A DNA stretch of 4,436 bases from the IMG/VR virus record IMGVR_UViG_2582580962_000008. One strand, written 5' to 3'. The stretch comes from a virus. Taxonomy: Duplodnaviria; Heunggongvirae; Uroviricota; Caudoviricetes. Shown here piece by piece: positions 1,122-4,436 of the stretch. The position numbers were made by a program, and so were the translations under genes. The notes beneath the pieces are model-generated. The model was not told where the DNA came from. It did not search any database and saw only the letters and a program-made list of their open reading frames with translations. The number at the start of each line of letters is the position of its first letter. Position 1 is the stretch's first letter.

Positions 1122-1774
1122 TGAGTAATAAATATTGCCAGGCGCTGGTGGAACTACGGAACAAACCAGCCCATGAACTGAAGGAAGTGGGCGATCAGTG
1201 GCGCACGCCGGACAACATTTTCTGGGGAATTAACACCCTGTTTGGCCCGTTTGTTCTGGATCTGTTTACTGACGGTGATAACGCCAAATGTGCCGCGTAT
1301 TACACGGCGGAAGACAACGCGCTGGCACATGACTGGTCAGAACGTCTTGCGGAGCTTAAAGGTGCTGCCTTTGGTAATCCCCCGTACAGCCGCGCCAGTC
1401 AGCATGAGGGACAATACATCACCGGCATGCGTTACATCATGAAGCATGCCAGTGCCATGCGTGATAAAGGCGGGCGCTATGTTTTCCTGATCAAAGCGGC
1501 CACCAGCGAAGTGTGGTGGCCGGAAGATGCAGATCATATTGCTTTTATTCGCGGGCGTATTGGTTTTGAACTGCCAGCCTGGTTTATCCCGAAAGACGAA
1601 AAGCAGGTGCCAACAGGTGCTTTCTTCGCTGGTGCTATTGCTGTTTTCGACAAGACCTGGAAGGGAGCGGCAATCAGCTACATCGGGCGCGATGAACTTG
1701 AGGCATGTGGTGAGGCATTTCTGGCGCAGGTTCGCCAGCAGGCGGAAAAACTGGTCAGGGAGATGGCGGCATGA
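1121..1774 (+). CDS. Phage Dam-family DNA N6-adenine methyltransferase (orphan)
   Basis: ATG at 1121 is preceded by a GGGGG RBS (1112-1116) and overlaps the upstream stop; the track start at 1088 is an upstream GTG. The protein has the (D/N)PPY catalytic motif of N6-adenine methyltransferases (AAFGNPPYS) and an N-terminal WRTPDNIFWG...FVLDLFTDGDNAKC region typical of the phage Dam family. The stop overlaps the next start (ATGA at 1771-1774). Confidence 0.85.
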   Translation: MSNKYCQALVELRNKPAHELKEVGDQWRTPDNIFWGINTLFGPFVLDLFTDGDNAKCAAYYTAEDNALAHDWSERLAELKGAAFGNPPYSRASQHEGQYITGMRYIMKHASAMRDKGGRYVFLIKAATSEVWWPEDADHIAFIRGRIGFELPAWFIPKDEKQVPTGAFFAGAIAVFDKTWKGAAISYIGRDELEACGEAFLAQVRQQAEKLVREMAA

Positions 1775-2097
1775 CGACATTAACTCAATGCCAGCAGCAG
1801 GTGCTGGATATGCTGATTTCTTATCAGAAAGAACGTGGCTTCCCGCCAACCAATCAGGAGGTGGCAACCATGCTGGGATACCGTTCGGTGAATGCAGCGG
1901 TGGAGCATCTTCGCGCACTGGAGAAAAAAGGTGTCATCACGATAAAGCGTGGCGTGGCCCGGGGTATCACTCTTCATACCGCGGTGAAGGACGACGACAG
2001 CGAGGCGGTCGGGATTATCCGCGCCCTGCTTGCCGGTGAGGCAAACGCCAGGCTGCGTGCAGCCCACTGGTTACATGAGAGGGGCCTGAAAGTATGA
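1771..2097 (+). CDS. LexA-like protein consisting of the N-terminal winged-helix DNA-binding domain only (108 aa; no S24 peptidase domain)
   Basis: A GGGAG RBS (1758-1762) precedes the ATG. The protein aligns by eye over about 65 residues with the E. coli LexA N-terminus (LTxxQQxVxDxI...GxPPTxxExAxxLGxRSxNAAxEHLxALxKKGVIxIxxGxxRGIxL), including the RS-NAA-EHL recognition-helix region. It ends about 40 residues after the DNA-binding domain with a LexA hinge-like LLAGEANA segment and no Ser/Lys catalytic core. The stop overlaps the rusA start (ATGA). Confidence 0.85.
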   Translation: MTTLTQCQQQVLDMLISYQKERGFPPTNQEVATMLGYRSVNAAVEHLRALEKKGVITIKRGVARGITLHTAVKDDDSEAVGIIRALLAGEANARLRAAHWLHERGLKV

Positions 2098-2534: not shown

Positions 2535-2554
2535 TACTGTATTTATGAACAGTG
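2535..2554. promoter_or_regulatory. LexA (SOS) box-like operator: TACTGTATTTATGAACAGTG
   Basis: CTGT-N8-ACAG with an AT-rich spacer, matching the E. coli SOS box consensus TACTGTATATATATACAGTA at 16 of 20 positions, with both CTGT/ACAG half-sites intact. This is the only CTGT-N8-ACAG in the window. It sits in the intergenic region 98 bp upstream of the KilA-N gene start and directly abuts a -35-like TTGATA. Confidence 0.6.
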
Positions 2555-2559
2555 TATCC

Positions 2560-2588
2560 TTGATAACTATTAAAAATCGCAGTAAGTT
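2560..2588 (+). promoter_or_regulatory. Putative sigma70 promoter for the KilA-N/DUF968 genes (-35 TTGATA at 2560-2565, 17-bp spacer, weak -10 TAAGTT at 2583-2588)
   Basis: The -35 is a 5/6 match to TTGACA and the -10 only a 3/6 match to TATAAT. Placement is tentative; the promoter could equally overlap the SOS box itself. Confidence 0.25.
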
Positions 2589-2651: not shown

Positions 2652-3467
2652 ATGAATCAGTTGCTTGTAATTGATGGCGTTTCTGTGCGCCAGTACTTCG
2701 AATCTAACTACTGTCTTAACGACCTTCAGAAAGCTGCTCTTCTTGCCGCTGGTGAGAATCGCTCCTCCCGTTCGCTGGAAGTTCACGAGTTTATGCGTCG
2801 TCCTGAAACGAAGGCTCTTGTGGAATTATTGGAAGAAGAAACTACGGGAGATTCCCGTAGTATTCCTGTCATCACCATTCAGGGGCGCAATGGTGGGACG
2901 TATGTCTGTAAAGAGCTGGTCTATGCATATGCAATGTGGATCAGCCCGGCATTCAGCTTAAAAGTGATACGTACTTTTGATGCGCTTCATAATTCATCAC
3001 CAGAAGAAACCACATCCGACAAAATTAAATCCGGGGTCATTCTGCTTGAATCAGCAGCAAAGACTCTAAATCTGTCAAACTCCTCGAAACTTGGTGCATA
3101 CCAGAAATTATCAAAGGTAGCTGGTCTTCCTGAACTTATGCCGATCTATGCCATTGATGCACCTGCTGATGCGCCAGATGGTTCAAGCCGCCCTACGCTG
3201 TCGCTGAGTGCACTGCTGAAGCAGTATGGTATCCGCCTGACGGCTAATCAGGCATATCACCAGATGGCGAAGCTGGGGATCGTTGAACAACGCGAACGAT
3301 ACAGCCGTACCGCGATTAACAACATCAAAAAATTCTGGTCGCTGACAGCGAAAGGCTGCATGTTCGGCAAGAACATCACCAGTCCTGCAAATCCGCGCGA
3401 GACGCAGCCGCATTTCTTCGAATCCCGATTCCCTGAGCTGTTAAAGCTGCTCGATACCGTTCATTGA
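2652..3467 (+). CDS. KilA-N domain protein (antirepressor-like or Roi-like DNA-binding protein; C-terminal domain uncharacterised)
   Basis: ATG at 2652 follows a GGAG RBS (2642-2645) with a 6-nt spacer; the track start at 2640 is a GTG overlapping that RBS. The N-terminal domain has the KilA-N hallmark block GTYVCKELVYAYAMWISPAFSLKVI (family pattern GTWVHPxLAxxFAxWLSPxF) and the upstream YCLNDLQKAA segment. The stop TGA at 3465-3467 overlaps the RBS of the next gene. Confidence 0.8.
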   Translation: MNQLLVIDGVSVRQYFESNYCLNDLQKAALLAAGENRSSRSLEVHEFMRRPETKALVELLEEETTGDSRSIPVITIQGRNGGTYVCKELVYAYAMWISPAFSLKVIRTFDALHNSSPEETTSDKIKSGVILLESAAKTLNLSNSSKLGAYQKLSKVAGLPELMPIYAIDAPADAPDGSSRPTLSLSALLKQYGIRLTANQAYHQMAKLGIVEQRERYSRTAINNIKKFWSLTAKGCMFGKNITSPANPRETQPHFFESRFPELLKLLDTVH

Positions 3468-3474
3468 GGTGACC

Positions 3475-4436
3475 GTGAGAGCACTACTGACCCCTGAAAT
3501 TGCCCCGCGTATGGGGATCGTATTGTTCAGACCAGGTTCAGAGCTGATGCCCCTGTTTATGCAGGGGCGTGTCCTGCTGGAGCCTGAGCCGGAGCGTTAT
3601 TCATCTTTCGCCAGTGGTGCCGTTCCGGCGGCATCACAACCGCTGGCGGATGATCCTGCCGTTCGGGCCGTGTTCCGCAATGAGGCAGTGATCCGTCGTG
3701 CTGGTGGCGTGGAATGTCTTGAAAGCTGGTTACTTCGTGAAAAAGGCTGCCAGTGGCCTCATTCCGACTGGCACAGCGAGAACATGACCACAATGCGACA
3801 CGCTCCGGGTGCAATCCGTCTGTGCTGGCACTGCGATAATCAGCTGCGCGATCAGTTCACGGAACGGCTGGAATCAATGGCAACGGATAACTGTGCCCGC
3901 TGGGTGTTGTCTGTTGTGCGTCGGGATCTCGGTTTTGATGACAGTCACGTTGTGACAATGCCGGAACTGTGCTGGTGGCTGATTCGTAATGATCTGGCGG
4001 ATGCCTTACCGGAAAGTGCAGCCCGTAAGGCCCTGAGATTACCGAAGCCTGTTGTGCCGTCTGTCACCCGGGAAAGTGACCTTGTGCCTTCGGTTACTGC
4101 CACCAGCATCATCCAGGATAAGGCGAAAAAGGTGCTGGCGCTGAAAGTGGATCCGGAGTCGCCGGAGTCTTTTATGTTACGCCCAAAACGTCGTCGCTGG
4201 GTTAATGAAAAGTACACGCGCTGGGTTAAGACGCAGCCGTGTGCATGTTGTGGTAAGCCAGCCGACGATCCTCATCACCTGATTGGTCATGGTCAGGGTG
4301 GAATGGGTACAAAAGCGCATGACCTTTTTGTGTTGCCTTTGTGCAGAAAACACCATGACGAACTGCATGCGGATACCGTGGCATTTGAAGAGAAGTATGG
4401 TTCCCAACTGGAGCTGATATTTCGTTTTATCGATCG
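3475..4436 (+). CDS. DUF968-like prophage protein with a C-terminal Cys/His (HNH-like or zinc-binding) cluster; the 3' end is outside the window
   Basis: An uninterrupted frame-1 ORF runs from GTG at 3475 (GAGG RBS at 3466-3469, 5-nt spacer) to the window end, about 320 codons. It is absent from the track because no stop falls within the window. The C-terminal region CACCGKPADDPHHLIGHGQGGMGTKAHDLFVLPLCRKHHDELH is the conserved DUF968-type Cys/His block as I recall it (K-12 Qin YdfU is the family member I have in mind). The start codon choice (3469, 3475 or ATG 3511) is uncertain. Confidence 0.8.
   Translation, partial: MRALLTPEIAPRMGIVLFRPGSELMPLFMQGRVLLEPEPERYSSFASGAVPAASQPLADDPAVRAVFRNEAVIRRAGGVECLESWLLREKGCQWPHSDWHSENMTTMRHAPGAIRLCWHCDNQLRDQFTERLESMATDNCARWVLSVVRRDLGFDDSHVVTMPELCWWLIRNDLADALPESAARKALRLPKPVVPSVTRESDLVPSVTATSIIQDKAKKVLALKVDPESPESFMLRPKRRRWVNEKYTRWVKTQPCACCGKPADDPHHLIGHGQGGMGTKAHDLFVLPLCRKHHDELHADTVAFEEKYGSQLELIFRFID

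Follow-up and report, generated by a model that had tools for sequence, protein, structure and literature searches.

A near-consensus SOS box at a predicted internal promoter upstream of a KilA-N/DUF968 gene pair in a lambdoid prophage

An SOS (LexA) box inside a phage operon raises the question of whether the genes behind it respond to DNA damage of the host and, if so, through which protein. The 4,436-nucleotide (nt) stretch analyzed here, referred to as the window, belongs to a Caudoviricetes virus (IMG/VR record IMGVR_UViG_2582580962_000008); it covers a section of a lambdoid prophage's early-right (nin) region, has all its genes on the + strand, and carries a box of this kind at 2535-2554, ahead of a gene pair encoding a KilA-N domain protein and a DUF968 protein. 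An earlier note on this DNA, made from the letters alone, had proposed that the box turns the pair into an antirepressor module triggered by DNA damage. The reading that we favor, with a probability of about 55%, is that the box serves as a LexA-type operator for a promoter internal to the nin region (here termed P_kil), which would drive KilA-N, DUF968 and probably the antiterminator gene Q. The features of the sequence make LexA regulation of P_kil probable, and the function of the two proteins is better explained in terms other than antirepression.

The site itself, TACTGTATTTATGAACAGTG, was found on the + strand and is a dyad that can be assigned to either strand. Its core, CTGT-N8-ACAG, is matched exactly at 2537-2552 and, as had been claimed and as a pattern scan confirmed, occurs only once in the window. 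Compared with the consensus 20-mer TACTGTATATATATACAGTA, 16 of 20 positions agree and four differ, and a search of the window for this consensus with up to three mismatches gave no match. The description of the box as near-consensus was upheld by scoring with the heterology index (HI), for which a symmetrized matrix reconstructed from 27 E. coli LexA sites was used; this matrix gave 2.2 for umuDC, the single site compared with a published value, which is 2.77 (PMC2994835). On the same matrix TACTGTATTTATGAACAGTG scored 5.1, between uvrB (4.6) and recA (5.8) and inside the span of the 27 known sites (2.2-12.1), and the runner-up 20-mer of the window scored 14.2. The eight bases of the core could recur by chance, with 0.07 occurrences expected per window and at least one present in 13 of 200 dinucleotide shuffles, but the full 20-mer is far less likely to do so. 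Under a random-sequence model, the probability of an HI of 5.12 or lower is 1e-8 to 5e-8 per 20-mer and 4e-5 to 2e-4 per window, and an HI as good as that of the box was reached in none of 3000 shuffles. Additionally, the box was the sole site with an HI below 14 across 24 kb of an identical prophage. The box is thus far beyond chance expectation, and a chance origin of a site with an HI of 5.1 is ruled out.

The box lies in the 162-nt gap (2490-2651) between rusA (2094-2489, + strand; PF05866 and RefSeq annotation) and the KilA-N gene (2652-3467, + strand), which is indeed the only sizeable gap between phage genes in the window. The tight coupling of the downstream genes was likewise observed, KilA-N and DUF968 being 7 nt apart. 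The earlier note was mistaken about the gene immediately 5' of the gap, which it took to be LexA-like; that gene is rusA, and the LexA-like gene (1771-2097) is one further upstream. A sigma-70 scan of 2440-2660 on both strands, built on consensus frequencies, returned TTGATA-17-TAAGTT as the top match on either strand, with a score of 10.7 against a 90th-percentile background of 9.3; a stricter promoter scan of the window called no promoter at this position. The predicted -35 hexamer of P_kil, TTGATA (2560-2565, + strand), corresponds to the hexamer that had been remarked on next to the box and begins 5 nt past it. The predicted -10 hexamer, TAAGTT, follows at 2583-2588 (+ strand), and the transcription start is predicted at 2595 (+ strand), 7 nt past the -10 and beside an invariant TG, where a conserved leader begins. 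A Shine-Dalgarno sequence, GGAG (2642-2645, + strand), is part of a conserved GTGGAGA that is kept 5' of the start codon in nearly all orthologues.

Relative to a start at about 2595, the box would span approximately -60 to -41, and its 3' end adjoins the predicted -35 without overlapping the predicted core promoter. Most SOS boxes in E. coli overlap the core promoter (-35, -10) or the start site. The box stands 97 nt from the KilA-N start codon, which is long, yet in the range listed for the SOS genes of Salmonella, where box-start distances include uvrD at 105 (PMC8072944). A candidate promoter overlapping the box, TTGGGT-16-TACTGT, scored 5.8, which is under the background median, and was rejected. 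Leftward promoters scored 6.3-8.2 with poor -10 hexamers and were retained only for a low-probability alternative that is discussed below.

The arrangement of box and promoter is shared by other phages. The window was aligned with an IMG/VR phage (L128), a Kluyvera locus (L172) and a Raoultella locus (L007), gap-free from the dyad through the leader, and in all four diverged lineages the dyad is followed by 5 nt, the -35, 17 nt and the -10 (TAAnnT), with the -35 at the same position and T1, A2, A3 and T6 of the -10 invariant. Invariant columns made up 11 of 20 in the dyad versus 4 of 20 in the promoter spacer. A scan of IMG/VR viral contigs for the layout pattern yielded 119 loci, each with the same TGCAG leader, and CTG-N10-CAG was retained in 115 of them (HI 5.1, 8.9 or 10.0), in three different sequence families and at an identical distance to the -35. 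The dyads of 118 of the 119 loci were tabulated and fell into six variants, namely TACTGTATTTATGAACAGTG (88 loci, HI 5.1), TGCTGGATGTTTGTTCAGTG (20 loci, HI 8.9), CGCTGGATGTTTGTTCAGTG (7 loci, HI 10.0) and, at one locus each, TGGTGGATAAATGAACAGTG (HI 10.1), TGGTGGATATATGATCAGTG (HI 11.1) and GGATGGATAAATGATCAGTG (HI 15.7), the last three having GTG or ATG in place of the left CTG. The dyad of the Kluyvera lineage is GGGTGTATGCATGAACAGTG, with an HI of 14.2. In sum, a LexA-type dyad with constant spacing to the promoter is ancestral to, and mostly retained in, one promoter family, of which the window carries the best version; it is not universal to the KilA-N gene.

Evidence from outside this promoter family was also obtained. 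Among 41 full-length orthologues of the KilA-N gene from other genera, eight have a LexA-like palindrome (HI of 14 or lower) within 200 bp upstream, as opposed to 17 of 1161 background windows (Fisher p = 6e-7). In the loci of Erwinia, Serratia and Rahnella, palindrome and predicted -10 overlap, as in L027 with TTGCCA-17-TATATT. E. coli and Shigella show almost no variation in the gap, and its few variants spare the core of the box. In phage SfIV and strain AZ187 the final base of the box is changed from G to A, towards the consensus, giving an HI of 4.1, and in the alignment of five E. coli alleles (88-100% identical) just one of the gap's substitutions lies inside the box, at its outermost base.

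Altogether, these observations suggested the following mechanism. In a lysogen, host LexA would occupy 2535-2554 and hinder RNA polymerase, probably by blocking the region of the alpha subunit and UP element and by crowding sigma region 4. DNA damage would lead to RecA-stimulated cleavage of LexA and free P_kil, allowing a transcription of the KilA-N and DUF968 nuclease genes that is independent of the prophage repressor cI. The transcript would open with a conserved 5' hairpin and, since DUF968 and Q are only 14-17 nt apart in each of three annotated prophages that were checked, would probably extend into Q.

Several points weigh against this proposal. The HI matrix is a reconstruction, both P_kil and its start are consensus predictions, and repression by an operator placed 5' of the -35 may be weak. 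A search of a literature library covering the site, KilA-N in connection with LexA or SOS, DUF968, and SOS transcriptomes of O104:H4 returned no direct data and no mention of SOS for the site or the proteins. Conservation, which the earlier note had suggested as a check, is a mixed result: the layout and dyad persist in four lineages and in 115 of 119 loci, but most KilA-N orthologues have neither the promoter nor the box. In phage SfV and the commonest E. coli allele, KilA-N is joined straight to rusA with no promoter, and a Citrobacter KilA-N orthologue that is 80% identical lacks the box (HI 20). The loss of half-sites, named in the same note as evidence that would count against the box, was found in part, as the left CTG has become GTG in L128, L172 and L272 and ATG in L198 despite the same layout (HI 10-16), and the left C is lost in three of the six promoter lineages. 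A conserved (C)AGTGCA leader motif at the predicted start coincides in part with the right half of the palindrome in L004 and L012, so the enrichment of 8 in 41 is inflated. Divergence within E. coli is too low for selection on the box to be seen. Additionally, this dyad is always linked to the gene for a phage paralogue of LexA, which may be the real ligand or a second one; that this protein could occupy the site had been raised in the earlier note.

This paralogue, the product of the gene at 1771-2097 (+ strand), is a 108-aa protein with the LexA N-terminal DNA-binding domain (PF01726, 69 bits). It shares 43% identity with residues 1-87 of E. coli LexA, keeps the winged-helix domain and retains S39, N41 and A42 of the recognition helix, with V44 where LexA has E44. 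It scores 70.7 against TIGR00498, under the cut-off of 110.95, and ends at residue 108 with a conserved tail of approximately 35 aa in place of the S24 cleavage and dimerization domain, so it would not be inactivated by self-cleavage. The dyad might accordingly be mainly an operator of this protein, made from the early rightward operon, with host LexA a second ligand where the consensus happens to fit; the paralogue would then bind during lytic growth and re-repress or activate P_kil, tuning the expression of KilA-N, DUF968 and Q. We regard this as possible, though clearly less probable than control by host LexA.

Besides the retained helix residues, the distribution of the paralogue gene speaks for such a role. 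It is present with all six dyad variants that have enough upstream sequence, and it was found in 33 of 34 de-duplicated loci with the promoter layout versus 24 of 39 RusA-adjacent loci without it (Fisher p = 2e-4). Residues 44 and 45 of the helix track the half-sites, with V,E accompanying CTGT/ACAG, A,T or A,S accompanying CTGG/TCAG, and T,A or T,D accompanying GTG(G/T), and the invariant part of the dyad in the four-lineage alignment is TG rather than CTG. The gene and the dyad are, however, only about 0.5-0.9 kb apart, and at less than 1 kb linkage alone could produce both the co-occurrence and the covariation. With six lineages the binomial probability is only 0.054, and the tracking of the half-sites is not clean, as L009 combines E45 with a GTGG half-site. 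Paralogues 95-98% identical to that of the window occur in SfV, L010 and L146, where promoter and dyad are absent, so the protein must have other targets. Conversely, LexA-like palindromes stand 5' of KilA-N in six loci (L004, L011, L012, L013, L027 and L030) with no LexA-domain gene within 3 kb upstream, so in other layouts such palindromes are independent of the paralogue. Having no LexA dimerization domain, the 108-aa protein may not bind a dyad, and it should not be made in a repressed lysogen. The parallel variation of residues 44/45 and the half-sites was seen in the window, L007, L128, L172 and L272, and could reflect either co-evolution or linkage.

Given the strong consensus match and the expected silence of the paralogue in the lysogen, host LexA is the likely ligand there, and the paralogue is a serious second or alternative one. 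A combination of the two is conceivable but rather speculative. The dyad could be a shared operator that passes from host LexA in the lysogen to the non-cleavable phage mimic of LexA after damage, with the mimic possibly also acting on SOS boxes of the host; the exchange would reset KilA-N, DUF968 and Q, the recognition helix and the half-sites would co-evolve, and the leader hairpin would provide a second control at the RNA level.

It is also conceivable, albeit unlikely, that LexA binds the box with little regulatory effect and that the site is a decaying passenger of a mosaic intergenic cassette, tolerated outside the core promoter. The location of the operator 5' of the -35 would fit, as would the degraded left half-site of three related lineages, the absence of the box from the 80%-identical orthologue and the lack of a constraint signal from E. 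coli variation. A KilA-N allele with 88% protein identity (P0002, loci L167-L169) has an upstream region 100% identical to that of the window, which places a mosaic recombination boundary inside or just past the start of the KilA-N gene; recent recombination explains this better than selection over a long time. A passenger would not be expected to show a dyad better conserved than the neighboring promoter spacer in four lineages, or CTG-N10-CAG kept in three sequence families at the exact distance from the -35, and chance cannot account for an HI of 5.1 in the first place.

The products of the two genes bear on the antirepressor proposal, in which KilA-N, with or without DUF968, would inactivate the prophage repressor, and perhaps those of other prophages in trans, under LexA control in the manner of Tum of coliphage 186, AntC of N15 and GfoA/GftA/GfhA of the Gifsy phages. 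The KilA-N protein (271 aa; its RefSeq coordinates agree with those given above) matches PF04383 over residues 10-114 with 57.6 bits against a cut-off of 23.8, and belongs to phrog_129 of PHROGs, annotated as 'transcriptional regulator'. Pfam matches at E <= 0.01 were limited to KilA-N, with no ANT/KilAC, AntA, Bro-N, P22_AR (P22 antirepressor) or DinI. An AlphaFold model (mean pLDDT 77) shows the KilA-N domain, a helical linker and a C-terminal alpha/beta domain, that is, two putative DNA-binding domains; a sequence search of the PDB returned nothing, and Foldseek of the model against the PDB found nothing below E = 0.79 and only faint winged-helix resemblances. The DUF968 gene (3475-4436, + strand) has a GTG start and runs off the window; its product matches PF06147 with 260 bits and, more weakly, HNHc_6 with 26.8 bits, and falls in phrog_96, 'HNH endonuclease'. 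By family match DUF968 is an HNH-type (His-Me finger) nuclease, a module that occurs in fusions with recombinases and has been discussed alongside the Orf family of phage recombination proteins (PMC4118853). Searches of both proteins with PADLOC and NCBIfam gave nothing useful. The pairing itself is conserved: in the genome scan, most full-length KilA-N orthologues have DUF968 next to them, downstream and with similar spacing, over a range of genera that reaches from Escherichia to Proteus and Gilliamella.

In favor of antirepression, the LexA-boxed operon lies outside the immunity region, between the replication genes and Q, with a palindrome ahead, as in the Gifsy prophages, for which action in trans on other prophages is documented (PMC3121763), and some phage regulatory proteins carry KilA-N domains. 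On the other side stand the absence of any match to an antirepressor family, the PHROGs annotation, a model with two putative DNA-binding domains and no significant PDB neighbor, and a conserved partner tied to recombination functions. Moreover, a Peptidase_S24 domain is present in the cI proteins of SfIV (93 bits) and of a 100%-identical E. coli prophage (L001; 88 bits), which can thus self-cleave, so prophages with this region need no antirepressor, and most orthologues lack an SOS box, their transcription being simply a continuation of that of the early operon. We consequently consider the antirepressor role put forward in the note unsupported and improbable. Our best guess is that the pair combines a DNA-binding protein and a nuclease that act in phage DNA metabolism.

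The least probable reading, which we consider very doubtful, is that the box controls a leftward promoter, TTATCA-19-TACAGT with its -10 inside the box, giving an SOS-induced RNA of approximately 75 nt antisense to the 3' end of rusA and ended by a hairpin (2485-2464) with a T-run: a terminator-like hairpin followed by CUUUUU on the - strand, the lack of a leftward gene in the window that needs it and the classical placement of a box over a -10 would suit this, but the promoter score of 6.3 is about the background median, the spacer is 19 nt long, no Rfam match was found, and the other lineages having the dyad and promoter lack both the hairpin and the 45 nt that separate rusA from the box. 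This 8-bp hairpin at the 3' end of rusA (2464-2485, either strand) has a folding energy of -13.5 kcal/mol with z = -3.7 on the + strand and z = -4.1 on the - strand, has no U-tract on the + strand, and was found only in the intergenic allele of the window type.

A second RNA element lies downstream of the predicted start. The leader hairpin (2602-2628, + strand) consists of an outer stem ACGA/TCGT, an inner stem GGGA/TCCC and a loop GTGCAG (2613-2618). Across many genera its stems differ yet pair, and the TGCAG of the loop is invariant. In the leader alignment 80% of the cells were paired versus 52% after shuffling, with a covariation score of 0.68 versus 0.24, neither of which was reached in any of 500 shuffles, and shifted registers gave far lower scores. 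With a covariance model of the leader, every match at E < 0.01 in 481 kb was located just 5' of a KilA-N gene, and a scan of the whole window against Rfam 15 at E <= 10 returned only noise, with no relevant match for the hairpin. The hairpin stands about 25-45 nt ahead of the KilA-N start codon, followed by the conserved GTGGAGA ribosome-binding site, and was also found 5' of KilA-N in ten other loci (L004, L005, L007, L008, L010, L012, L027, L030, L128 and L172). Its presence with or without the promoter indicates that it belongs to the KilA-N gene and not to SOS control. An 11-bp deletion allele (FRIK944 type) lacks the 3' arm of the outer stem and keeps the inner stem intact. Interpretations of the hairpin as an intrinsic terminator or a nut-like element were rejected, as it has no U-tract after it and accompanies KilA-N in every context.

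The remaining genes of the window and the distribution of the region complete this description. Upstream of the LexA-domain gene, Pfam identified on the + strand an insertion sequence (IS) transposase remnant (DDE_Tnp_1 C-terminal, 8-220), the 3' end of a replication gene (409-630), a PerC-like gene (633-1121) and a Dam methylase (1121-1774). The transposase remnant and IS end (8-408) adjoin the truncated replication gene, so the replication module is interrupted in this prophage copy. In E. coli 2012EL-2448, a prophage that is 100% identical to the window over 361 bases (2400-2760) has no IS at that point; its immunity region encodes a cI-type repressor, and its DUF968 gene lies 14 nt ahead of the Q antiterminator, past which come lysis genes. 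The order methylase, LexA-domain gene, RusA, gap, KilA-N, DUF968 and Q recurs in Citrobacter, Kluyvera, Cedecea and metagenomic contigs. Of 5,426 complete E. coli genomes, 186 contain exactly this region, including S88 and the O104:H4 outbreak strain (in a non-stx prophage), and the window-type gap also occurs in PhiR49_1 and in the serotype-converting Shigella phage SfIV. A link to Stx was rejected, as the O104:H4 copy lies outside the Stx2 prophage, and the Stx phages in the phage collection gave no match to the intergenic query.

Other LexA-like palindromes were noticed in related prophages. One lies 3' of Q, for example TACTGTAAAAATAAACAGTG (HI 4.4-5.0), in L002 (SfV, position 9288), L295 (18436), L005 (6156), L013 (5951) and L032 (5460); in SfV and in the O104:H4 prophage (L295) it coincides with the opening codons of a late-region DNA methyltransferase gene, and it is missing from the 2012EL-2448 prophage. 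It may be retained by the coding sequence or be a real operator. Another, TACTGTTTTTACATACAGTA (HI 3.4), is found at 8827 of L295 (O104:H4 C227-11 prophage), inside an XRE-family repressor gene, and the same prophage has the window-type box. Additionally, eight proteins of 401-405 aa (P0066, P0071, P0081, P0082, P0085, P0096, P0101 and P0102) combine RusA and KilA-N domains. They come from the allele class in which rusA runs through the TGCAG hairpin and abuts KilA-N, and could be fusions, read-through products or gene-calling artefacts.

Direct control of phage genes by LexA is an already-known strategy, of which the box at P_kil would be a new example. If P_kil is controlled by LexA, DNA-damaging antibiotics would directly switch on a phage nuclease module, and the late-gene antiterminator Q might also come on without cleavage of cI, with possible changes in the timing of lysis and in phage release. 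A further feature of the locus is its covarying RNA hairpin, which is undescribed and goes with a phage gene pair that is widespread; the locus also offers a compact system for the study of phage proteins that consist of a LexA domain only.

Among known systems, the closest parallel is the dinI-antirepressor-irsA operon of the Salmonella prophages Gifsy-1, -2 and -3 (Lemire et al. 2011, PMC3121763). In both cases an internal operon of a lambdoid prophage is headed by a LexA box with a palindrome ahead and can be transcribed apart from the immunity region; the Gifsy box lies 1.3 kb past the replication genes, and the present one about 1.9 kb past the end of the replication gene. The Gifsy palindrome is terminator-like, whereas the hairpin at 2464-2485 has no U-tract on the + strand. 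The genes are unrelated, with no dinI, small antirepressor or irsA here, and the Gifsy repressors are not cleaved, in contrast to the S24-type cI of the prophages discussed here. The Gifsy box is 19 bp from the start codon (PMC8072944), compared with 97 nt and a position ahead of the -35 in the window. In coliphage 186 (p95-tum) and N15 (antC), a single phage promoter is repressed by host LexA itself, which links phage gene expression to the SOS response (cited in PMC3121763), as is predicted from sequence for P_kil. The products of those two systems are antirepressors, Tum having a DinI-like half, and KilA-N and DUF968 are similar to no antirepressor family tested.

The phage paralogue resembles LexA itself in its winged-helix domain and in the recognition residues named above, and differs from it in having a short tail instead of the S24 domain and in scoring below the NCBIfam cut-off for LexA. 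For the placement of the box, the PrstA promoter of CTXphi is reportedly comparable: in the work of Quinones et al. (2005) and Kimsey & Waldor (2009), LexA is reported to bind just 5' of the core promoter there and to contribute to repression. CTXphi is a filamentous phage, unlike the lambdoid prophage considered here, and its site is reported to act together with the phage repressor RstR. Most chromosomal boxes of E. coli cover the -35, the -10 or the start, whereas the box at P_kil adjoins the -35 from upstream; it nevertheless shares with those of recA, sulA, uvrB and umuDC the same dyad, flanks of the TAC/GTA type and an HI in their range.

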